The position numbers and the translations under genes were made by a program. Positions 3,078 to 60,589 of a DNA stretch of 64,000 bases are shown piece by piece. The notes below the pieces were generated by a model that worked only from the letters and a program-made list of their open reading frames with translations, was not told the origin of the DNA and did not search any database. This DNA comes from Chloroflexota bacterium (GTDB lineage: Bacteria; Chloroflexota; Anaerolineae; DUEN01). Each line of letters opens with the position of its first letter. Within the stretch, counting starts at the first letter, position 1. The stretch is from the NCBI GenBank assembly GCA_013152435.1, contig JAADGJ010000059.1:24558-88557 (forward strand), in the 5' to 3' direction.

Positions 3078-3914
3078 ATGGAATCCATGGGACGTCCATC
3101 GCTTTCGCTGCCGCTTACGCAGGTGCTCTTCACCGTCCTGGACGTGGAGACCACCGGCTTGGATGTCAGCCTTGGGCATCGTCTGTGTGAGATCGCCCTC
3201 GTGCGCGGGCGGGTTGGGCAGGAGCCCGAGGAGTTCTCCCAATATGTCAACCCGGAGCGGCCGGTAGATCCTGGAGCCCGCGCGGTGCATGGGATCCCCG
3301 ATACGGTCCTGTGGCGATCGCCGCGCTTCGCCGAGATCGCCCCATCCGTGCGAGATCTGGTGGAGGGCACTGTGATCGTCGCCCACAACGCCCCGTTCGA
3401 CCTCGGCTTTCTGGCGGCCGAATGGAGGCGTCTGCGGTGGCCCGCGCCGGCCGTGCACATCGTCGATACGCTCTCCCTGGCGCGGCGCTGGTTGCGGCTC
3501 CCAAACAATCGGCTGGGTTCCGTCGCGCGGGCGTTGAGGGTCTCCGTCCGAGGAGCGCACAGCGCTCTGGGCGACGCCCGCATGACCTGGGGGGTCTTGC
3601 AAGCGCTGATTCGTTATCTACAGGGGTATGGATTCACCACTTTGGGCGATCTGATCAACGCGCAGGGCGGGCCCGTGGTCTGGCCTGGCACGATGTGGCA
3701 GAACCTGCCCGATCCGTTGCGGGAGGCGCTTCAGACCGGCCGCAGGCTCTGGTTGCGCTACCTGGGCCAGCGACGTGACCTGACCGAGCGATGGGTCGAG
3801 CCGCTGGATGTGAACGGCGGATATCTGATCGCCTATTGTCACCTGCGTGGAGAACAGCGTACGTTCCGGCTGGATCGGATCCTGGAGATGCGCCTTGAGG
3901 ATAGAAACGCCTGA
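3078..3914 (+). CDS. DEDDh 3'-5' exonuclease (DnaQ / Pol III epsilon-like) fused to a C-terminal WYL domain
   Basis: Exo I motif VLDVETTGL, then HNAPFDLGFL and a late HSALGDARMT motif. The C-terminus RLWLRYLGQ..WVEPLDV..GGYLIAYCHLRGEQRTFRLDRI matches the WYL fold signature. Confidence 0.75.
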   Translation: MESMGRPSLSLPLTQVLFTVLDVETTGLDVSLGHRLCEIALVRGRVGQEPEEFSQYVNPERPVDPGARAVHGIPDTVLWRSPRFAEIAPSVRDLVEGTVIVAHNAPFDLGFLAAEWRRLRWPAPAVHIVDTLSLARRWLRLPNNRLGSVARALRVSVRGAHSALGDARMTWGVLQALIRYLQGYGFTTLGDLINAQGGPVVWPGTMWQNLPDPLREALQTGRRLWLRYLGQRRDLTERWVEPLDVNGGYLIAYCHLRGEQRTFRLDRILEMRLEDRNA

Positions 3915-10974: not shown

Positions 10975-12060
10975 CTAAGCGTGAGATCTGCGGTGTCGAT
11001 GGAGGAGGGATGCTTGTAGACGGTGTCGTCGTCGCATGATCTCCAGCACACGGGGCATGGCAAAGTTGTAAAAGCGATAGCCGGCCTGCGATACGGGATA
11101 GTCCCACGCGCCGATCCAGGCGGTGAATCGGCCTCCGAAGCCGGCCTTGAATCGATAGACGCCCCACATGGGATCGCTCTTTTCCAAGACGTCCGGCGCT
11201 CCCCAAAGATCGTATGTGGTACACCCCTGGGCGCGTGCCCAGCGGATGGCCTCCCACTGAAGCAGATGGTTGGGCATGCGGCGTCGCTCCCGGTGGGAGG
11301 AGGCCCCATAGAAGTACCAGGCGGTCGGACCGAATCGCAACAGGAAGATCCCGGCGATGGGCTGAGCTTCTACCTCCGCCAGCAGGAGATGGCCCTGTCC
11401 GGCCTCCAGAAACCGCTGCCACACGAACCGATAGTAAGGGAAGGGGCGGATCAGGAACCCGTCGCGCTGGCTGGTCTCCGCGTACAGGGCGTAGAAGGTG
11501 CCCAGATCGGCCGGGGTGCCCGCGCGCACGGTGACCCCTCGCCGTTGGGCCAGCCGGATATTATACCGCCATTTGGACTTCATCGCCAGCAGCAACGCCT
11601 CCTCGTCGGGGCGTAAATCGATGAGCAGGGTGTTCCGGAACTGGATCTGCTCGGCGGAGGGGCGCCACCCGCGCGCTTTCAGGAGCCTGCGCACCTCCTC
11701 TCCGGCGGGCGTGTCGGCGGGCACGTCCGGGTCGATCTTGACGAAGAGCACCCGTTGTCGTCGGGCCTCCGCTTCCAGGGCCTCCAGGGCTGCCTGGACG
11801 GCTTGCGGGTCCTCCCAATTCAGGGTTGGGCCTTTGGGCACATAGGCGATGCGGAAGGGAAGGCGGTTGAGGGCGCGAACCAGTAGCGCGATGGCCGCTA
11901 CAGGCGCCTCCTCGTTCGTGACCAGGAGCCGGTGGACCTGCCATCCCGTCTGGGTCTTGCACTCACCCCACAGCCAGCTCTGCAGGACGTGCGGCCGCGG
12001 CCATTGCAGGAGCGCCTCATCCCAGGCCTGAGGCTCGTCGATTCGCCGCACCGCGATCAT
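10975..12060 (-). CDS. FemAB-family aminoacyl-tRNA-dependent peptidoglycan bridge transferase, paralog 1
   Basis: The listed ORF 10975-12633 carries a spurious 191-aa Arg/Pro-rich N-terminal extension. The real start is taken as MIAVRRIDEP, overlapping the upstream paralog's stop as ATGA. It has a KSKWRYNIR motif and the FemAB fold. Confidence 0.7.
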   Translation of the reverse strand: MIAVRRIDEPQAWDEALLQWPRPHVLQSWLWGECKTQTGWQVHRLLVTNEEAPVAAIALLVRALNRLPFRIAYVPKGPTLNWEDPQAVQAALEALEAEARRQRVLFVKIDPDVPADTPAGEEVRRLLKARGWRPSAEQIQFRNTLLIDLRPDEEALLLAMKSKWRYNIRLAQRRGVTVRAGTPADLGTFYALYAETSQRDGFLIRPFPYYRFVWQRFLEAGQGHLLLAEVEAQPIAGIFLLRFGPTAWYFYGASSHRERRRMPNHLLQWEAIRWARAQGCTTYDLWGAPDVLEKSDPMWGVYRFKAGFGGRFTAWIGAWDYPVSQAGYRFYNFAMPRVLEIMRRRHRLQASLLHRHRRSHA

Positions 12061-13115
12061 GCTTCCCTCCGGCGTAGACGTCTGCCCACCCGATAGAGCG
12101 CGTATCCCGGACGGGAGAGCGGCTTTTCCCATGCGCCCATGAAGCGCACGATGCGCCCGCCGAACCCCTGCTTGAACCGGTAGACGCCCCACAGCCCGCC
12201 CCTCCGACCGACGTCGGAGGATGTGAACACCTCGGGGTTTCGGCCCACCTCGTCCGGGATGCCCCACAGATCGTACAGGCGACAGCCGCGGTCCCTGGCC
12301 CAACGCATGGCCGCCCATTGCAGCGCGTGGTTGGGCATGAGGTTTCGGCCCTGGCTGGCCGACGCCCCCCAGAAATACCACGCCCGGTCGCCGTGGGCGA
12401 GGACGACGATGGCGGCCAGCAGGTGCTCTTGGTGTTCGGCCAGCAGCCATGCGGCCTGTCCCGTGGGGGTGAAGAGGTCGTAGGCGGCCTCGTAATACGC
12501 GGCCGTGTGGATCCCGAAACCGTCTCGTCGGGCCGTCTCCTGCATGAGCGCGTACACGGCGGGAAGATCTTCCCGGGTGCCCGCGCGCACGGTGACCCCC
12601 TTCCGGGCGGAAAGGCGTATGTTGTATCGCCACTTGGACTTCATGCGGGCCAGCATCGCGTCGTCGTCATCGAGCTCGATCACGATGGTACTGCGGGGTT
12701 GGATGGGCTGGGGGGCCGGCCGCCACCCCCCTGCGCTCAGCGATGAGGCGGCCTCAGACCCATCCGGAAGATCTGGCTCCATCAGGAGCACGGCCGCGTG
12801 GGAGCGCCGCGCCATGGCCTCAAGGGCCCGCCATAGGGCGTGAACCTGATCGGGGCGTCCCCAGTCCACGATCGGCCCCTTGGGAATGTAGGCCAGCGTC
12901 TGTCCCCAGGGAAGCCGTCGGAACAGGATCTGGGCGCCGGCTGTGATCTCATCGCCATCGACCAGGGCCACGCGATGAACCCGCCAGCCGAAGCGGGCCT
13001 TGAGTTCGCCCCACAGGCGATGTTGCAGGATGTGCGCGTCCTTCCTGCGGGTAAGCCAGGCGTCCCATCTCTCATCGGGTAGATTCGCATCCAGGGTGGA
13101 AAGGGTCGTGGTCAT
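12057..13115 (-). CDS. FemAB-family aminoacyl-tRNA-dependent peptidoglycan bridge transferase, paralog 2
   Basis: Start taken at MTTTLSTLD. It shares KSKWRYNIRL, MPNHALQW, YDLWG and FKQGFGG blocks with paralog 1. Confidence 0.7.
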   Translation of the reverse strand: MTTTLSTLDANLPDERWDAWLTRRKDAHILQHRLWGELKARFGWRVHRVALVDGDEITAGAQILFRRLPWGQTLAYIPKGPIVDWGRPDQVHALWRALEAMARRSHAAVLLMEPDLPDGSEAASSLSAGGWRPAPQPIQPRSTIVIELDDDDAMLARMKSKWRYNIRLSARKGVTVRAGTREDLPAVYALMQETARRDGFGIHTAAYYEAAYDLFTPTGQAAWLLAEHQEHLLAAIVVLAHGDRAWYFWGASASQGRNLMPNHALQWAAMRWARDRGCRLYDLWGIPDEVGRNPEVFTSSDVGRRGGLWGVYRFKQGFGGRIVRFMGAWEKPLSRPGYALYRVGRRLRRREA

Positions 13116-19810: not shown

Positions 19811-19825
19811 AGGGGAGCCGTAGCT

Positions 19826-20067
19826 GAGGGTGTGTCTGAGGAATGCCGTCGCTTCTGCTGTGGGGAGCCCCTCCGGAAAAGGTCCTTCTTCTGCCTTCGA
19901 CCTGCCCAGCCTCGGCCTGGGCCCTTCGGGATGGGCCGAGAGAGGCAGGTACAGGCCGGAAAAGTGGGATTTCCGTGAAGGGGGGACCCCTCCGCACCTC
20001 CCCCTGTGGAGCGGGTCGTTGAGGGAGACCCTCCGGCACCTCTTATTGGAAGTTTTCGGACACGCTC
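19826..20067 (+). repeat. family-1 structured intergenic repeat, copy B
   Basis: Aligns with copy A end to end, with TIRs gagggtgtgtctga / tcggacacgctc. It lies between nadD and the M20 peptidase gene. Confidence 0.7.
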
Positions 20068-20228
20068 TGAGCCTAAGCGGTCGTCGGCGCAGGGTCAGAG
20101 ATTATGTCGGGGGAAGGGGGACGATTCGCTCCCCTTTCCCCGGGTAGTGGGGCTTCCATGCCCCACCTGCGGCGGCATGGAAGCCATCGCTGCCGAATGA
20201 TTTGAATCTGGATCGTGTCGAGGAGCTT

Positions 20229-29799: not shown

Positions 29800-29960
29800 T
29801 GTCTAATGGATGGAAAGGAGAAAGTATCTTCGGGCGGAGGGGAGTCCCTCTCCGGCCTGCACCTGCCTTGCTCGGCCCTTTCCGAAGGATCCAGGCCGGG
29901 GCCGGGCAGGTCGAAGGCAGAATCGGAGGGGGGATCGTGCGGCCGGTCCGAGGAGATGGC
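29800..29960 (-). repeat. degenerate or partial family-1 repeat, copy C (reverse orientation)
   Basis: Core 29835-29935 is the reverse complement of the family-1 central inverted-repeat segment (ttctgccttcgacctgccc..ggccgagcaaggcaggtgcagg). The termini have diverged. Confidence 0.45.
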
Positions 29961-30077: not shown

Positions 30078-30692
30078 ATGGCTCGCATGTTGGAAGCACC
30101 GATGTATCCGGTTGCTGGAGAAGTTTCCCTCGACCCGCGGCGCACCGCCGTGGTGGTGGTGGATATGCAAAACGACTTCGTGAAGCCGGATGGGAAGCTT
30201 CACGTTCCCAGCGCTCAGGAGGCCGTGGAGCCGATCGCCCGACTGTTGGAGCGGGCGCGAGAGGCGGGCGTTCTGATCATTTATACGCAGGATCTGCATG
30301 GCGAGGATGATCCCGAGTATGGGATCTGGGGGGAGCACGTGAAGGCAGGCACCTGGGGGGCGGAGATCATCCCGGAGCTGGCTCCCCAGCCGGGGGATGA
30401 GATCGTACAGAAGCCTCGCTACGATGCCTTCTACGCCTCTCGCATGGAGGACGTGCTGCACTCACATTGGGAGGTGGACACGCTGATCATCACGGGCACG
30501 GTGACCAATATCTGCGTGCTCCACACGGCCGGAAGCGCGGCGCTGCGCTGGTATCGGATCGTGGTCCCGAAGGACGCCGTGGCCGCCCTGAACGAGTTCG
30601 ACCAGGAGGCCGCGTTGCATCAGATCGACTTCCTGTACAAGGGGACGATCACCACGGTGGATGCGATCCGTTTTGACGCTGACGAGGGATGA
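30078..30692 (+). CDS. isochorismatase-family cysteine hydrolase
   Basis: VVVDMQNDF, a Lys residue and the catalytic Cys context GTVTNICVLHTA. ATG with GGAGGG RBS. Confidence 0.8.
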   Translation: MARMLEAPMYPVAGEVSLDPRRTAVVVVDMQNDFVKPDGKLHVPSAQEAVEPIARLLERAREAGVLIIYTQDLHGEDDPEYGIWGEHVKAGTWGAEIIPELAPQPGDEIVQKPRYDAFYASRMEDVLHSHWEVDTLIITGTVTNICVLHTAGSAALRWYRIVVPKDAVAALNEFDQEAALHQIDFLYKGTITTVDAIRFDADEG

Positions 30693-30714: not shown

Positions 30715-30812
30715 CCGAAGGAGCAAAGCCCCCCGGAAAGATCTCTTTCTCCGGCCTCCGATCTGCCGGGCCTCGGCCCAGATCCCCACACAAAGGACCG
30801 AGGCCCGGCAGG
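30715..30812. repeat. short family-1-like hairpin fragment
   Basis: ccggaaagatctctttctccgg, then ctgccgggcctcggcc..ggaccgaggcccggcag, echoing the family-1 internal palindrome. Confidence 0.3.
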
Positions 30813-30837
30813 TGCTGGCTGGGAGGTGAGAGCTCTG

Positions 30838-31038
30838 GGGAGGGAGAATCTGCCTCCCCATTGGTATCAACTTAAGCGATATGGAAGCGTGGCCCCGCAT
30901 CTCTGGGGTGGTTCGGAGGGGCTTCCCCTCCGCCCCCCCCTTTCAGGTGCGACCGCCCGTGGAGGGAAAAGGTGGCAGGCAGGGGCCTCGCTCATGCTGT
31001 TCAGTTGATGCGAATAGGAGGGAGAATCTGCCTCCCCT
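30838..31038 (+). repeat. family-2 structured intergenic repeat, copy D (157-bp core 30860-31016 flanked by 21-nt direct repeats GGAGGGAGAATCTGCCTCCCC)
   Basis: Core attggtatcaac..ctgttcagttgatgcgaat is shared with 45801-45957 and 60281-60427. The flanking direct repeats are themselves hairpins. Confidence 0.7.
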
Positions 31039-31183: not shown

Positions 31184-32356
31184 CTATTCGAAGAAGGAGG
31201 CCCCTTCTTGTAGGTGCGCTCGTGCGACCTCCTCGTTTAGCGTAATCCCCAGCCCGGGCTCGTCCGGCAGCGCGATGTAGCCGTCCTGGATAAGCGGCGT
31301 GTCGCCGACGACCAGGTCATCCCACCACGGCACCTCCTGGGCGTGGAACTCGAGGATGAAAAAGTTGCGCATGCTGGCGCAGGAGTGGCACGCGGCCATG
31401 GTGGCGATGGGGCTGGAGACGTTGTGAGCGGCCATGGGGATGTAGTAGATGTCGGCTAAGTCGGCGATCTTTTTAGCCTCCAGCAGGCCGCCCACTTTGG
31501 GGATATCGGGTTGGACGATGTCGACCGCCTGAGTGGTGATTATGGGACGCAGCCCATGGCGCGTGTAGTGGTTCTCGCCGGAGCAGATCGGGACCGGCGA
31601 GTGCTCGGTGACGCGCTTTAGCGCCTCGACGTTGTCGGGCGGCGTGGGATCTTCCATCCACATCAGACGGAAGGGCTCCAGTTCCTGGGCCAGTTTGATG
31701 ACATCACGGGTGTTGTAGTTCCAGTGGCAGTCCACGGCCAGGTCCACGTCGGGGCCGATGGCCTCACGTACGGCGCCGACCAGGCTGACCATGAGATCGA
31801 TCTCCCGGGTGGAGAGGGGGCGTTGCTGGCCCTGGAGCCATCCCTTACGTGCGCCGACGCCTACGTGGTAGGGATCCCGGAATCGTTCGGGGGCGATGTT
31901 GTCGAGATCGAACTTGATGGCGGTGAATCCCTCGGCGACCGCCTGTTGGGCGTGCTCAGCCCACGCGGCCGGTGTAGGTTCGGCGCCATGACCGCAGTCC
32001 GCGTATACCCGGATCCGATCTCGATATCGCCCGCCCAACAGGTTGTAGATCGGCGTGCCCAGGGCCTTCCCCTTGATGTCCCACAGGGCCAGCTCGATGC
32101 CGCTGATGGCGGCCACGACGGCGCCGCCGGTGGATCCGGCCCCAGACATCCCCCGCACCATCTTCTGGTACAGCCAATCGATGTTGTGCGGGCTTTCGCC
32201 TATCAGCAGCGGCTTCATGCGGCGCACGATGGTCTCCACGCCGGCGCCCCAGTAGCACTCCCCCAATCCGATGATCCCCTGGTCCGTGTACACGCGGACC
32301 AGGATCCATTCGAAGTTCCCCTGTACGACGGCGGTTTTCACGTCAGTGATCTTCAT
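31184..32356 (-). CDS. enolase-superfamily dehydratase (D-galactonate / D-mannonate dehydratase-like)
   Basis: MKITDVKT..GLGECYWGAG N-terminal capping domain, and barrel acidic ligands (VDCHWN, WMEDP). The protein is 390 aa. Confidence 0.8.
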   Translation of the reverse strand: MKITDVKTAVVQGNFEWILVRVYTDQGIIGLGECYWGAGVETIVRRMKPLLIGESPHNIDWLYQKMVRGMSGAGSTGGAVVAAISGIELALWDIKGKALGTPIYNLLGGRYRDRIRVYADCGHGAEPTPAAWAEHAQQAVAEGFTAIKFDLDNIAPERFRDPYHVGVGARKGWLQGQQRPLSTREIDLMVSLVGAVREAIGPDVDLAVDCHWNYNTRDVIKLAQELEPFRLMWMEDPTPPDNVEALKRVTEHSPVPICSGENHYTRHGLRPIITTQAVDIVQPDIPKVGGLLEAKKIADLADIYYIPMAAHNVSSPIATMAACHSCASMRNFFILEFHAQEVPWWDDLVVGDTPLIQDGYIALPDEPGLGITLNEEVARAHLQEGASFFE

Positions 32357-44794: not shown

Positions 44795-44882
44795 GCCGAA
44801 GTGGCGGAACAGGCAGACGCGCTACGTTCAGGGCGTAGTGGGCTTTACGCCCGTGTGGGTTCAACTCCCACCTTCGGCACCA
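44795..44882 (+). tRNA. tRNA-Leu (anticodon CAG), class II with long variable arm
   Basis: Acceptor GCCGAAG/CTTCGGC, D arm GCGG..., anticodon stem CTACG/CGTAG with loop TTCAGGG, variable arm TGGGCTTTACGCCCGTG, T arm GTGGGTTCAACTCCCAC, discriminator A and encoded CCA. Confidence 0.85.
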
Positions 44883-44891
44883 GGCGGTGAT

Positions 44892-44922
44892 CCCAGCGCT
44901 GCAGGGCAGGCTGGGATTTTGT
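44892..44922 (+). terminator. hairpin CCCAGCGCTGC..GCAGGCTGGG followed by ATTTTGTT
   Basis: Immediately 3' of tRNA-Leu. Confidence 0.35.
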
Positions 44923-44953
44923 TACGGCTCCGTCTCTGAAAGGAGCGACGATC

Positions 44954-45355
44954 GTGTCTTACCGGATGCGGCGATATTCGCTGAACCTGTCGCAGTGGAT
45001 GATATTGATCACGATCGTGTTCCTGGCGCTTCTGGGGGTGGGATATATCGAGCGCCGGGCGACGCTGGCCTCCCTGAAGGGCGAGCTGGCGCAGACGAGG
45101 GAGATGGTTCAGGGGGCTCAGCAGCGTCAGGGTGAGCTGTTGGGGTATCTGGAGTATGTCCGGAAGGACTTGCACATCGATGCGATGGCTCGTTCATTGT
45201 TGGGGTGGGCGAAGCCGGAGGACGTGGCAGTGGATGTGATCCCGGAGGATGCCCCTCTGCCGACGCCGGAGATCGCGGAGCCCTTGCAGGAGGAGGAGCA
45301 GGGACAGAGGCGGATGCCGTGGCAGGCGTGGTGGGATCTGTTCTTCGGCCCATAG
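44954..45355 (+). CDS. FtsB/DivIC/FtsL-like septum formation initiator family membrane protein
   Basis: GTG start with AAAGGAG RBS, one transmembrane helix (WMILITIVFLALLGVGYI), a coiled-coil segment and an acidic Pro-rich tail. Confidence 0.55.
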   Translation: MSYRMRRYSLNLSQWMILITIVFLALLGVGYIERRATLASLKGELAQTREMVQGAQQRQGELLGYLEYVRKDLHIDAMARSLLGWAKPEDVAVDVIPEDAPLPTPEIAEPLQEEEQGQRRMPWQAWWDLFFGP

Positions 45356-45419
45356 CGGGATATCTTGTGGCCATGGAATTTGACAGTCGTGCCGCCGCCG
45401 AGTATAATCGTAAGCGTGC

Positions 45420-45493
45420 TGCGGGGTGGAGCAGAGGCAGCTCGTCGGGCTCATAACCCGAAGGTCGCAGGTTCGAATCCTGCCCCCGCTACC
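45420..45493 (+). tRNA. initiator tRNA-fMet (anticodon CAT)
   Basis: Three consecutive G-C pairs closing the anticodon stem (TCGGG CTCATAA CCCGA) and an unpaired 1:72 position (U:U). High identity to canonical initiator tRNA. The 3' end reads ACCT, so CCA is not fully encoded. Confidence 0.8.
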
Positions 45494-45497
45494 TAAA

Positions 45498-45536
45498 GGC
45501 TGATGGGTTTGGGAGGGTTTCCACCATCAGCTTTTC
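45498..45536 (+). terminator. hairpin GGCTGATGG..CCATCAGC followed by TTTTCGCTC between the two Met tRNAs
   Basis: 8-bp stem plus T tract. It could be a processing or attenuation structure. Confidence 0.3.
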
Positions 45537-45549
45537 GCTCTCAGCGTGT

Positions 45550-45624
45550 GGCGACGTAGCTCAGATGGCAGAGCAAGCGGCTCATAATCGCTGGGTCACT
45601 GGTTCGAGTCCAGTCGTCGCCACC
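45550..45624 (+). tRNA. tRNA-Met elongator (anticodon CAT; tRNA-Ile2-lysidine cannot be excluded)
   Basis: Acceptor GGCGACG/CGTCGCC, anticodon loop CTCATAA, T arm CTGGTTCGAGTCCAG and discriminator A. The 3' end reads ACCT. Confidence 0.75.
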
Positions 45625-45663
45625 TGCCACTAGATGCCGTGGCATCGCTTTGTTACCCTGTTA

Positions 45664-45702
45664 CCCCTCGTGGTCGAGGTATGCCGCGAGGGGTATTTTT
45701 GT
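45664..45702 (+). terminator. rho-independent terminator CCCCTCGTGG-loop-CCGCGAGGGG + TATTTTTGT
   Basis: 10-bp GC-rich stem followed by a T-run downstream of the tRNA cluster. Confidence 0.55.
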
Positions 45703-45779
45703 AAGCGACGCAAGAAAGGCGCCTTCTGTGGGCTTTTCCCAGGCGGGGGATTTATCTGTCGCTGTCCATCTGTGAGCGA

Positions 45780-45979
45780 GGGCGACTCATGAATCGCCCC
45801 ATTGGTATCAAGGTATGCGATACGGAAGCGTGGCCTCGCATCTCTGGGGTGGCTCGGAGGGGCTCTCCCTCCGCACCTCCCCTTTCAGGTGTGACCGCCT
45901 GTGGAGGGAAAAAGCAACAGGCGGGGGGCTCACCCACGCTGTTCAGTTGATGCGAATGGGGCGACTCATGAATCGTCCC
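45780..45979 (+). repeat. family-2 structured intergenic repeat, copy E (core 45801-45957 flanked by direct repeats GGGCGACTCATGAATCG(C/T)CCC)
   Basis: The core aligns with copies D and G. The flanking 21-nt hairpin is duplicated with one mismatch. It lies next to the tRNA cluster. Confidence 0.7.
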
Positions 45980-46057
45980 TGCCCCGGCAACGCCCATGAG
46001 GGAGACCACTGGCGAGATCACGCTCAATAATCCACATCGAAAGTCACGCGTGTAAAC

Positions 46058-47284
46058 ATGGCACAACCCAACGAGATCGACTATAAATCCTTTTTGCGAA
46101 CCCTCGGGCGCCCTATTGTCGTCCTGCTGACGCTTCAACTGATGGGGGGCATGATCCTCGCCCCGCATCTCACCTTTTTCCCGCTTTACCTGAAGGACTT
46201 GGGCCACTCCACCATTGTGATCGCCAACATCGTCGCCGCCAGGCAGGTGGCGGGGTTGATCGCGTCCCTGGTCGGTGGCACCCTGAGCGACTCGGTGGGG
46301 CGGAAATGGACGCTGCTATTGGGGAACGTGGGCTATCTGGTGTCCAGCTTCGCGTTTCTCGTCCTTTCGCCGGGTTGGATCGGACTTCTATGGATCATCG
46401 GCGGGTTTGGGCAGGGCTTGCACACCCTGGGCGGGCAGAGTTATCTGATGGACACTGCTGCCCCCCAGTTTCTCGGCCTGACCTCGGCTTTGTACAACTG
46501 GGGCTATACGCTCGGCGGCGTGCTCAGCAGCCCTATCGCGGGCTGGATCCTCGATCGTTGGGACTATGGCGTCTTTGCCAGAGTGTTGGTCGTGTTCTCC
46601 ATTGGCACGGTGGCGCTCAACCAATTCGTCTTGCCACGCTCCCCCGTGGAGCACCGGACGCAGGCTCCCGGCCTGAGTCGCTTCTTCGGCTATGGCGATA
46701 TCGCCCCTCGTCCCACCGTGCTGATTCTGGCCACGCTGCGCTTCCTGCCCACGTTCTACTATGCGATCATGCTGGTCCTGATCCCCTTGCTGCTGGACGC
46801 CGCCGGGGCCAGCAAGACGATCATCGCCTGGTACGCCACGATCAGCTGGATAGCGGCCTCCCTCGCTCAGGCCGTCGTGGGATATGCCGCGGACCGGTGG
46901 AACCCCATCCCGGCGACGGCGATGACCTTTGCCGCGCTGCTCGCCAGCATGCTCGGCATCGGGCTCCGATCTTCCAGCCTGTGGGTCGTGTTCACTTTTG
47001 GGACCGTGGGCATCGCCGCTGCGTGGTCGCTGTCGACCCTGTTGCCCAGCCTTGTCGCTCTGGCCACCGTCCCGGAGGAGCGCGGGCGCGTCTTGGGATT
47101 CATCCATTTGTGGTGGAACCTCGCCATGATCATCGGGTCGATGGCCAGCGGGGCGCTGTTCGAGATCGCCTCCGGATTGCCCTTCTTGGTCGCCGGCATC
47201 GCCAACATCGGCTCCCTGGCTCTGCTGTTCGTCTATCATCGCCTCGTCGCACCGTCGCGTGCCTTGCCTTCCTCCCCCCGCTAA
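46058..47284 (+). CDS. MFS-family transporter
   Basis: 12 predicted transmembrane segments and the MFS loop motif GTLSDSVGRKWTLL. Confidence 0.8.
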   Translation: MAQPNEIDYKSFLRTLGRPIVVLLTLQLMGGMILAPHLTFFPLYLKDLGHSTIVIANIVAARQVAGLIASLVGGTLSDSVGRKWTLLLGNVGYLVSSFAFLVLSPGWIGLLWIIGGFGQGLHTLGGQSYLMDTAAPQFLGLTSALYNWGYTLGGVLSSPIAGWILDRWDYGVFARVLVVFSIGTVALNQFVLPRSPVEHRTQAPGLSRFFGYGDIAPRPTVLILATLRFLPTFYYAIMLVLIPLLLDAAGASKTIIAWYATISWIAASLAQAVVGYAADRWNPIPATAMTFAALLASMLGIGLRSSSLWVVFTFGTVGIAAAWSLSTLLPSLVALATVPEERGRVLGFIHLWWNLAMIIGSMASGALFEIASGLPFLVAGIANIGSLALLFVYHRLVAPSRALPSSPR

Positions 47285-59735: not shown

Positions 59736-59962
59736 CTGCTTTTTGGTGATGATCCCGCATCCCAGCCGGCGAACCCGTGTCCCGCTCTCTACAGTACATG
59801 TCAACGTGAATCGCAAAAGGCTACCAGCGTATGCTATTATATCCTAGCCAGAGCGAAAAGGCAATACGTTTGCTTACCTATGTGGGTGGACGTGATTTCC
59901 CCGTGCCGCTCGTTTTCCTGGCTCCCTCAAAGGTTTCCATCTTTTTTGGCTCGTGTGTGTTA

Positions 59963-60198
59963 GAGCGTGCCTGAGGATTTATCGGCAAGGTGTCTGAGGG
60001 GTCTCCCCCAACGACCCGCTCCACAGGGGGAGGTGTGGAGGGGACCTCCCCTCCACGGGAACCCCCTCGCTTTTCCGGCATGCACCTGCCTTTCTCGGTC
60101 CTTCCCAAGAGATCCAGGCCGAGGCCGGGCAGGTCGAAGGCAGGAGAAGGACTTTTTCCACCCCACAGCAGAAGCAACGGCGTTTCTCAGACACACTC
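59963..60198 (-). repeat. family-1 structured intergenic repeat, copy F (reverse orientation)
   Basis: Its reverse complement aligns end to end with copies A and B, with TIRs gagcgtgcctga / tcagacacactc. Confidence 0.7.
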
Positions 60199-60257
60199 TT
60201 CTTGATCTTCACGTGGTGAAAGAAACATGCGGGCCGCGTCATTCATTTCGGATAAGT

Positions 60258-60449
60258 GGGGGCAACCCACCGGGTCGCCCGTTGGTATCAGGTTAAGCGA
60301 TACGGAAGCGTGGCCCCACATCTCTGGGGTGGCTCGGAGGGGAAGCCCCTCCCCTTTCAGGTGTGACCGTCTGTGGAGGGAAAAGCGACGGCGGGGACCT
60401 CGCCCACGCTGTTCAGTTGATGCGAATAGGGCGACTCGCCAGGTCGCCC
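60258..60449 (+). repeat. family-2 structured intergenic repeat, copy G (core 60281-60427, flanked by GGGCAACCCACCGGGTCGCCC / GGGCGACTCGCCAGGTCGCCC)
   Basis: The core aligns with copies D and E, with loop indels in the internal GGAGGGG hairpin. It lies directly next to family-1 copy F. Confidence 0.7.
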
Positions 60450-60589
60450 TACAGAACCCTGCTATTTCCTGAAAACCAGGGTTCATACCATAGGTTGACG
60501 GATAGCACATTTGTTCTTATAATGAGGATGTAAGGATGGGTGACACAGAGGAGGGAGCTCGCGAGCAGGTGAGGTAGAGGGAGGATCGG

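Follow-up and report, generated by a model that had tools for sequence, protein, structure and literature searches.

Family-2, a short repeat of Chloroflexota that is probably a non-autonomous transposon duplicating whole palindromic targets

Background

What kind of element keeps a constant core between two hairpins that change from copy to copy? The question is raised by Family-2, a repeat that occurs three times in a 64,000-nucleotide stretch of DNA from a Chloroflexota bacterium (assembly GCA_013152435.1, contig JAADGJ010000059.1, positions 24,558 to 88,557 of the forward strand). We will refer to this whole stretch as the window. Every copy is bracketed by its own direct repeat of about 21 nt, which is itself a hairpin. 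The first-pass annotation of the window left two answers side by side. The hairpins could be a target duplication of unusual length, left by an element that picks hairpins as insertion sites, or hairpin, core and hairpin could form a single transcribed RNA unit. Here we argue for the former. In our opinion Family-2 is very likely a non-autonomous DNA transposon, that is, a miniature inverted-repeat transposable element (MITE), whose ends would be joined by a trans-acting transposase to a GC-clamped palindrome with duplication of 20-21 bp.

Results

The three copies, which we call D, E and G, lie where they were first described, and all are on the plus strand. The core of copy D (156 nt, 95.5% identical to the family consensus) occupies 30860-31015 (+), with its terminal inverted repeats at 30860-30871 and 31004-31015. 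The core of copy E (157 nt) extends over 45801-45957 (+) and that of copy G (147 nt) over 60281-60427 (+), the latter having a 10-nt internal deletion within the central hairpin. Directly after the terminal ...GCGAAT each copy has one base that is not part of the duplication: A in copy D (to 31016), G in copy E (to 45958) and A in copy G (to 60428). Pairwise identity among the three cores is about 87%. Their tips, ATTGGTATCAAC and GTTGATGCGAAT, are inverted repeats of each other, with 10 of 12 positions matching as read from the sequence and about 13 of 18 when the comparison is extended; the conserved core with 12-nt terminal inverted repeats that was first described is real, with a length of 147-157 nt and imperfect repeats. 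The left end can be written as (C)ATTGGYATCAAC.TAAGC and the right end as TCAGTTGATGCGRAT(A), a shorter right form being GTTGATGCGRAT(A). An invariant 19-mer near the 3' end, CTGTTCAGTTGATGCGAAT, is present three times in the window and is expected zero times (100 shuffles). When the consensus was used as a blastn query, no fourth copy was found in the 64-kb window.

The hairpins on both sides of each core are nearly the same sequence. In copy D the left target palindrome GGAGGGAGAATCTGCCTCCCC (30839-30859) and the right one (31017-31037) agree at 21 of 21 positions. In copy E the left hairpin GGGCGACTCATGAATCGCCCC (45780-45800) and the right hairpin GGGCGACTCATGAATCGTCCC (45959-45979) agree at 20 of 21, and in copy G GGGCAACCCACCGGGTCGCCC (60260-60280) and GGGCGACTCGCCAGGTCGCCC (60429-60449) at 17 of 21. 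All of these flanking repeats fold as hairpins; as single-stranded DNA they reach -4 to -8.5 kcal/mol, with z scores of -1.1 to -3.7. The claim that each copy has its own hairpin-forming direct repeat of about 21 nt is borne out by these computed folds.

Three copies are few. The invariant 19-mer was used as a query against 185,579 species genomes and, among the matches listed, hit 20 contigs of one Chloroflexota metagenome-assembled genome (MAG) as well as giving two chance matches. The MAG is Dive96_bin10.82 (JAJRVX01, GCA_024277095.1), and loci from it are designated L001-L031. Three proteins encoded next to the copies in the window are 97%, 95% and 93% identical to their best matches, which map to JAJRVX01 contigs. 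Judged by these identities, the MAG is a close relative of the window organism. Its loci contain at least 21 copies of Family-2, the 21st being at the edge of L007. Most of them are longer than those in the window, 275-286 nt (for instance 279 nt), and consist of the short form plus a nested element of about 100 nt, which sits within the internal hairpin CGGAGGGG..CCCCTCCG. Among the matches listed, a metagenome scan for Family-2 gave a chance match only; a scan of viral sequences and a blastn search of plasmids gave nothing.

Both flanks are readable in 20 copies. In 13-14 of these 20 the flanks match each other over a constant length of 20-21 nt, and the sequence varies from copy to copy, so that the pairing of flanks holds well beyond the three copies in which it was noticed. 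Flanks belonging to the same copy give pair scores of up to 21, against a mean of -6.6 for flanks of different copies. A score of 15 or more was reached by 14 of 380 cross-copy pairs, all of the same hairpin type. The target can be reconstructed as GTAG|GGGCG-N9-11-CGCCC(C)|TAC, and for 11 of the 14 copies with matched flanks the palindrome's dyad is no more than 0.5 nt away from the centre of the duplication. Two targets, those of L013 and L018, are poor palindromes and still show a duplication of about 20 nt. In these two copies the C before ATTGG looks element-derived, which favours a duplication of 20 bp over one of 21 bp. Some of the targets are central parts of other small repeats and some are terminator-like.

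In the remaining six copies the flanks do not match. Their left and right halves come from different repeat contexts, namely those of two other repeats, famX and famY, that are described below. Such copies are chimeras, of the kind that homologous recombination between dispersed copies would produce. A survey of the IS1202 family explains elements without direct repeats by recombination likewise (bioRxiv 10.1101/2022.12.17.520857).

If the hairpins belong to the target, a site without the element should have one hairpin only. Such a check in a related genome was suggested in the first-pass annotation, and L031 of the MAG gives the decisive result: a single hairpin without the core. This locus, with a tRNA, a terminator, famX and an MFS transporter gene, is the ortholog of the copy E site. 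Positions 1187-1442 of L031 are 97.3% identical to window positions 45545-45800, and positions 1421-1600 are 93.3% identical to window positions 45958-46137. The tRNA-to-MFS spacer of the MAG has a single occurrence of the 22-nt sequence GGGGCGACTCATGAATCGCCCC (L031 1421-1442); in the window this sequence stands on either side of the 157-nt core. The boundary between presence and absence falls exactly at the repeat. The comparison of the two genomes allows two histories: the element may have inserted in the lineage of the window, or it may have been excised precisely in that of the MAG. Either way Family-2 is mobile and its flanking hairpins are derived from the target.

The same picture is obtained within repeat families. 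In the window, famX is split by the element: its left portion (45718-45800, +) ends with the left hairpin of copy E, and after the right hairpin the remainder continues to 46004 (+). In the numbering of the uninterrupted famX of L002, positions 1-84 and 63-109 flank the copy E core. Uninterrupted famX with a single hairpin is found in L002 and also in L003, and these are paralogous empty sites. Copy G is missing from the orthologous intergenic region of the MAG (L028) as well. We do not count L028 as a clean empty site because the spacer is rearranged, with 104 nt versus 510 nt between conserved blocks. The ortholog of the copy D site cannot be used: its hairpin has one end of an insertion sequence (ISx, see below) in the loop, and this is where the contig stops. 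Nevertheless, the gene-side arm of that hairpin, next to the enolase-like gene, is kept in the MAG, and the copy D hairpin thus predates the insertion. Of the two answers that we started from, it is the long target duplication at hairpins that agrees with orthologous and paralogous empty sites, with a fixed length centred on the dyad and with the chimeric nature of the unmatched copies.

A search with the end motifs of Family-2 for a longer, autonomous copy turned up another element, Family-2b. It occupies 305-545 of L011 (minus strand), is 241 nt long and has an interior unrelated to that of Family-2. Its left end ATTGGCATCAACGTAAGC matches the Family-2 terminus at 16 of 18 positions and its right end CTCAGTTGATGCGGAT at 14 of 16, so that likeness is limited to termini of about 18 nt. 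Its flanks match at 18 of 21 positions. Family-2b stands in tandem with a normal long copy of Family-2, with the result that one hairpin sequence is found three times running. Since Family-2b shares with Family-2 nothing apart from the termini, the termini are the functional part. Two elements that are alike only at their ends also point to a trans-acting protein that recognizes those ends.

A possible mechanism

Family-2 has the attributes of a MITE. It is short, non-coding and multi-copy, it has terminal inverted repeats and a copy-specific target duplication, and it is present at some sites and absent from their counterparts. The duplication is centred on a dyad and fixed in length, the target is variable, an orthologous site is empty, and a second element has the same ends. 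What follows about the enzyme is more speculative. The class of the enzyme, presumably a DDE-type transposase acting in trans in the manner of IS1630 (see below), and the chemistry of a staggered cut are what such observations would suggest. A transposase encoded elsewhere in the genome would bind the inverted ends of 12-18 nt. It would then join these ends to the two strands of the palindrome, at points that are separated by 20-21 bp and lie symmetrically on either side of the dyad. This would leave two single-stranded gaps, and their repair would copy the whole palindrome to both sides of the element. Nearly all targets are of similar length, and the target may be read either as a symmetric duplex or as an extruded cruciform. 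Because each insertion regenerates two intact hairpins, whatever role the hairpin has for neighbouring genes would be preserved, and new targets would be made at the same time. These new targets may lead to tandem and nested arrays.

One can go further and suggest that the system is of an undescribed kind. A transposase not belonging to the IS30 family would read two-fold symmetry or a cruciform and not a sequence, would cut with a fixed 20-bp stagger centred on the dyad, would serve Family-2, Family-2b and possibly Family-1 (another repeat of these genomes), and would give rise to self-propagating arrays of hairpin, element and hairpin. This suggestion is tentative and we consider it rather doubtful.

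Several observations weigh against the transposon hypothesis. As the first-pass annotation stated, the window appears to have no transposase: in a Pfam search of its 40 largest open reading frames (E <= 1e-5 or 1e-3) no domain of a transposase, integrase, reverse transcriptase, Cas1 or Y1 transposase was found. There are no further Family-2 end motifs in the window, and no autonomous copy, with end motifs 1-2 kb apart, in the window or in any of the loci fetched. When InsI of E. coli IS30 was used as a tblastn query, neither the window nor some 250 kb of related loci gave an IS30-like gene. In the genome and metagenome scans Family-2 was seen, among the matches listed, in one other genome only. 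The duplication could be 20, 21 or 22 bp long, because in most copies the bases that adjoin the ends are ambiguous. Precise excision, through recombination between the 21-nt repeats, explains the empty MAG site equally well, in which case that site is not the ancestral state. Finally, the window copies are about 87% identical, compared with 93-97% for the orthologous spacers. Since the copies are more diverged than the spacers, one has to assume either several diverged source copies or old insertions that were lost from the MAG.

Alternative explanations

One alternative is the RNA unit of the first-pass annotation. On this view hairpin, core and hairpin make up the gene of a structured small RNA, the plus strand being the one that is transcribed, and its paralogous copies are selected for RNA structure. 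The predicted fold is indeed very stable (copy D with its flanks reaches -111.8 kcal/mol, z -5.75), although the same can be expected of any element that has inverted ends and palindromes in its interior. All 18 of 18 cores fold more stably as the plus strand than as the minus strand, by about 9 kcal/mol, owing to five fixed (majority) G-U pairs that are tolerated on the plus strand alone. As all copies descend from one another or a common source, this advantage amounts to one observation; it fits a strand-specific structure and does not demonstrate selection. For 18 near-complete cores RNAalifold gives 49 pairs, one of which is compensatory, and a positive covariation term, meaning that the structure is unsupported. 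The covariation score is 0.080 against 0.079 in shuffled alignments, with 148 of 500 shuffles equal or higher, in a test whose power is limited because the copies are about 90% identical. The disappearance of covariation in a larger alignment had been named beforehand as evidence against the RNA unit, and with 18 copies the covariation is gone. The C/T changes said to keep pairing through wobbles are real, but the transcribed and structured plus strand at which they were taken to hint is not supported: in the 18 cores minority G-U combinations occur at 14 predicted pairs and A-C or C-A combinations at 14, and with these equal counts the substitutions are best taken as ordinary C/T polymorphisms. 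At gathering thresholds the whole window gives three tRNAs and no other Rfam match, and a permissive search over copy E (E <= 10) gives a best score of 21 bits against a threshold of 40 bits (E 0.21). We therefore rejected the known Rfam families, including group II intron domains and known small RNAs, for want of a match near the gathering score, and also a new structured RNA family, with its one compensatory pair in 49. The flanking hairpins, moreover, come from the target and are single at the empty site, Family-2b has a different interior between the same ends, and most MAG copies carry an insert of about 100 nt in the central hairpin, which a selected fold could hardly tolerate. On these grounds (no covariation, target-derived hairpins, the nested insert and Family-2b) the RNA-gene reading is unlikely, and we would give it very little weight.

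Three further explanations concern the way in which the element and the hairpins came together. A site-specific recombinase, tyrosine or serine, of integron or Xer type, might cross a hairpin of the circularized element with a genomic hairpin. The targets are hairpin-forming palindromes, and integron attC sites and dif sites are imperfect palindromes too. Exchange of hairpin by hairpin would also give what is seen in the nested Family-1, where the left hairpin looks specific to the element and the right one to the host. However, a site carried by the element predicts a constant or hybrid hairpin. What is observed around the constant core of Family-2 is a wide variety of hairpins, both of them equal to the target at the empty site and neither a hybrid of donor and target, and a duplication whose length is fixed even in poorly palindromic targets. 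No recombinase gene was found among the 40 largest reading frames of the window. Recombination of this sort strikes us as quite improbable, and an integron cassette with an attC site was rejected, since both flanks equal the target and there is no integrase in those 40 reading frames. Even less probable is a single-strand element of the REPIN or IS200/IS605 type, in which the hairpins would belong to the element itself, lying subterminally and being recognized by an HUH (Y1) transposase. Hairpins on the same strand at both ends are a feature of IS200/IS605 as well, and the clamp GGGGCG...CGCCCC shared by the copies resembles repetitive extragenic palindromic (REP) sequences. IS200/IS605 elements make no target duplication. 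In Family-2 the upper stem and the loop differ completely from copy to copy, agree between the two sides of any one copy, and are already there at the empty site; a palindrome-associated transposable element (PATE) derived from IS200/IS605 was rejected because the hairpins are target-derived and duplicated, and no Y1 domain was found in the reading frames just mentioned. REPINs are defined by two REPs in inverted orientation with a short spacer between them, together with a RAYT gene (PMC3337134). The hairpins of Family-2 are direct, as can be told from the imperfections of the palindromes, and differ between copies, and a REPIN moved by a RAYT transposase was rejected for these reasons and for want of a Y1 domain in those reading frames. 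Lastly, Family-2 might not be mobile at all, its hairpin-core-hairpin block having been spread by segmental duplication or gene conversion. In copies E, L001, L002 and L020 the likeness of the flanks does continue for tens of nucleotides outside the hairpin, and the same holds among L010, L014 and L015. Yet these shared flanks are the repeats famX and famY, which are also present without the core, the flanks of most copies are unrelated outside the 21 nt, and at the orthologous site the boundary lies exactly at the repeat. We find this last explanation, too, extremely hard to believe.

Associated repeats

Some of the hairpins that Family-2 occupies belong to other repeats. One of these, famX, is a repeat of about 115 nt around a near-perfect palindrome of 26 nt, CAGGGGCGAnTCATGnATCGCCCCTG. 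Apart from the interrupted copy in the window (45718-45800 plus 45958-46004) it is found at L002 6398-6512, L003 530-635 and L031 ~1340-1475. It has the same orthologous place in both genomes, 3' of a tRNA and terminator and 5' of the MFS gene, is repeated elsewhere in the MAG, and is the target of several Family-2 insertions. When an uninterrupted copy was compared with Rfam at permissive E-values, no match was obtained. Another, famY, is a MITE-like repeat of the MAG, about 190 nt long, with inverted ends CTACCGGACAGTTTG and CAAAAGTGTCCGGTAG and a central hairpin GGGGCGCAGCGCCGCTGCGCCCC into which Family-2 is inserted. It is located at L015 ~3280-3745, with left halves in L010 and L014 and right halves in L009 and L005.

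Family-1 is a repeat of about 70-100 nt with the core CCGGCCTGCACCTGCC...GGCAGGTCGAAGGCAG. In the window it is found at 29851-29920, 60074-60143 and ~30745-30815 (minus strand), and within 2720-2846 and 19864-19990. A relative of about 100 nt is nested in the internal hairpin of the long Family-2 copies of the MAG, for instance at L010 2212-2490, and in the window Family-1 is nested in Family-3. Each time it is bracketed by a GGAGGGG..CCCCTCC hairpin. The left one, whose loop is CGG(C)AG, does not differ between the two hosts and the right one is host-specific, so that these flanks may be either a diverged target duplication or the outcome of hairpin-to-hairpin recombination. Family-3 itself is a MITE-like repeat of about 260 nt with inverted ends ..GAGCGTGTCTGAAAA ... 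TTTTCAGACACGCTC.. and a nested Family-1. Its copies lie at ~2670-2935 and ~19820-20085 of the window and, in the opposite orientation, at 59960-60200. In the MAG, L006 is a chimera in which the ends of Family-2 enclose the interior of Family-3, the two being joined at a shared GGAGGGG..CCCCTCC-RCACCTCCC hairpin module.

The insertion sequence ISx of the MAG has 100%-identical ends with the inverted repeats TGTCAAGTCCTGAAATACGTTTACAAC and TGTCGTCCTGATATAGGTTTACAAAG, and it encodes the C-terminus of an IS3/rve-like transposase (..YNTDRPHMSLAYATPLAVY..). Its parts are seen at L023 5331-5402, L017 3995-4206 and 1-109, and L005 58-129. It occupies the loops of G/C-rich hairpins, including the ortholog of the copy D hairpin and one internal hairpin of Family-2, and breaks the MAG assembly at contig ends.

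Genomic surroundings

All three window copies are intergenic. Copy D lies between the convergent genes 30078-30692 (+), isochorismatase-like, and 31184-32356 (-), of the enolase superfamily. Copy E has a tRNA cluster on one side and an MFS transporter gene on the other. The cluster has three tRNA genes within 44795-45622, at 44795-44879 (with a long variable arm), 45420-45491 and 45550-45622, and 3' of them, at ~45668-45695, there is a hairpin that has a T-run. This hairpin and the last of the tRNAs are kept in the MAG; the genes upstream differ and encode HTH-domain proteins there. Copy G lies between the divergent sortase and radical-SAM genes. Directly 3' of it, a near-consensus promoter, TTGACG-17 nt-TATAAT, is kept in both genomes (window 60495-60523, L028 ~3860-3890); it is located about 70 nt 5' of the radical-SAM/HhH gene and is undamaged by the insertion.

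Two internal repeats of the window are of another nature. One, at 10975-12633, is a direct repeat of 160 nt inside a FemAB-family reading frame; its two parts are 70% identical and 1061 nt apart, which would fit the duplication of a domain in tandem or of a gene. The other, at 2048-2360, is a direct repeat of 148 nt inside a LysM-domain reading frame (80% identity, 165 nt apart).

Implications

If our interpretation is correct, Family-2 offers a clean natural case of a target chosen by the symmetry or structure of DNA and not by its sequence. A fixed duplication of about two helical turns, centred on a dyad, constrains the geometry of the transpososome. It would also mean that a behaviour of IS30-type elements in Mollicutes extends to a MITE in a distant, GC-rich phylum. 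Insertion that regenerates the hairpin is a low-cost mode of transposition and could spare terminator function for both neighbours. There are practical consequences too. Together with Family-1, Family-3, famX, famY and ISx, Family-2 explains the assembly breaks in the MAG, and repeats of this sort need masking before one interprets intergenic hairpins or "conserved structured RNAs" in these genomes.

Comparison with known systems

The duplication of a whole palindrome is unusual for a transposon and has a precedent; for Family-2 it has so far been found in two closely related Chloroflexota genomes. Bacterial MITEs such as MITEAba12, Correia and RUP resemble Family-2 in being small, non-coding and multi-copy, with inverted ends and a target duplication, and in being intergenic, mobilized in trans and apt to break assemblies. 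The duplications of bacterial MITEs are about 2-9 bp long, and these elements are not known to duplicate a complete palindrome. Insertion sequences that target REPs, such as IS1397 and ISKpn1, also use extragenic palindromes, as the IS3-like ISx does in the MAG at the hairpin that flanks copy D. They insert in the loop with a duplication of 3-4 bp, so that the hairpin is split, whereas Family-2 leaves two complete hairpins. An analogy that is mechanistic only may be drawn with integration by Cas1, in CRISPR spacer acquisition and in casposons, where staggered attack at the ends of a palindromic repeat followed by gap repair duplicates the repeat. In those systems the repeat stays constant and the insert changes; in Family-2 it is the target sequences that vary.

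Unusually long direct repeats in discrete length classes are shared with the IS1202 family. Its duplications are 5-6, 15-17 or 27-28 bp long, and its termini start with TGT (bioRxiv 10.1101/2022.12.17.520857). Membership in that family was rejected, given a duplication of 20-21 bp centred on a palindrome and ends of the form (C)ATTGG / CGAAT(A).

This leaves IS1630 of Mycoplasma fermentans, a member of the IS30 family. Its inverted-repeat target is duplicated, giving direct repeats of 19-26 bp (PMC2853133), and individual duplications of 16, 23, 25 and 26 bp are reported (PMC3317919). ISMhom-1 of M. hominis, also of the IS30 family, behaves similarly (PMC7648426). Both are autonomous elements of 1.3-1.4 kb with 27-bp inverted repeats and an IS30-type transposase, they live in AT-rich Mollicutes, and the length of their duplications is variable. 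Family-2 has 157 nt, is non-coding, has ends of 12-18 nt and a fixed duplication of 20-21 bp, and lives in GC-rich Chloroflexota. We do not claim that Family-2 belongs to the IS30 family, given that its ends are of another length and that no IS30-type transposase was found in the window or the related loci. A likeness of its tip ATTGGTATCAAC to the subterminal CAATTGGTCAAC of IS30 from E. coli K-12 extends over 10 nt and an indel; this is too short and was not taken as evidence. What Family-2 has in common with IS1630 and ISMhom-1 is the manner of insertion: a whole terminator-like inverted-repeat target is duplicated, and from one site to the next the sequence of that target varies and its symmetry stays constant. 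The behaviour of IS1630 is the closest known to that of Family-2.

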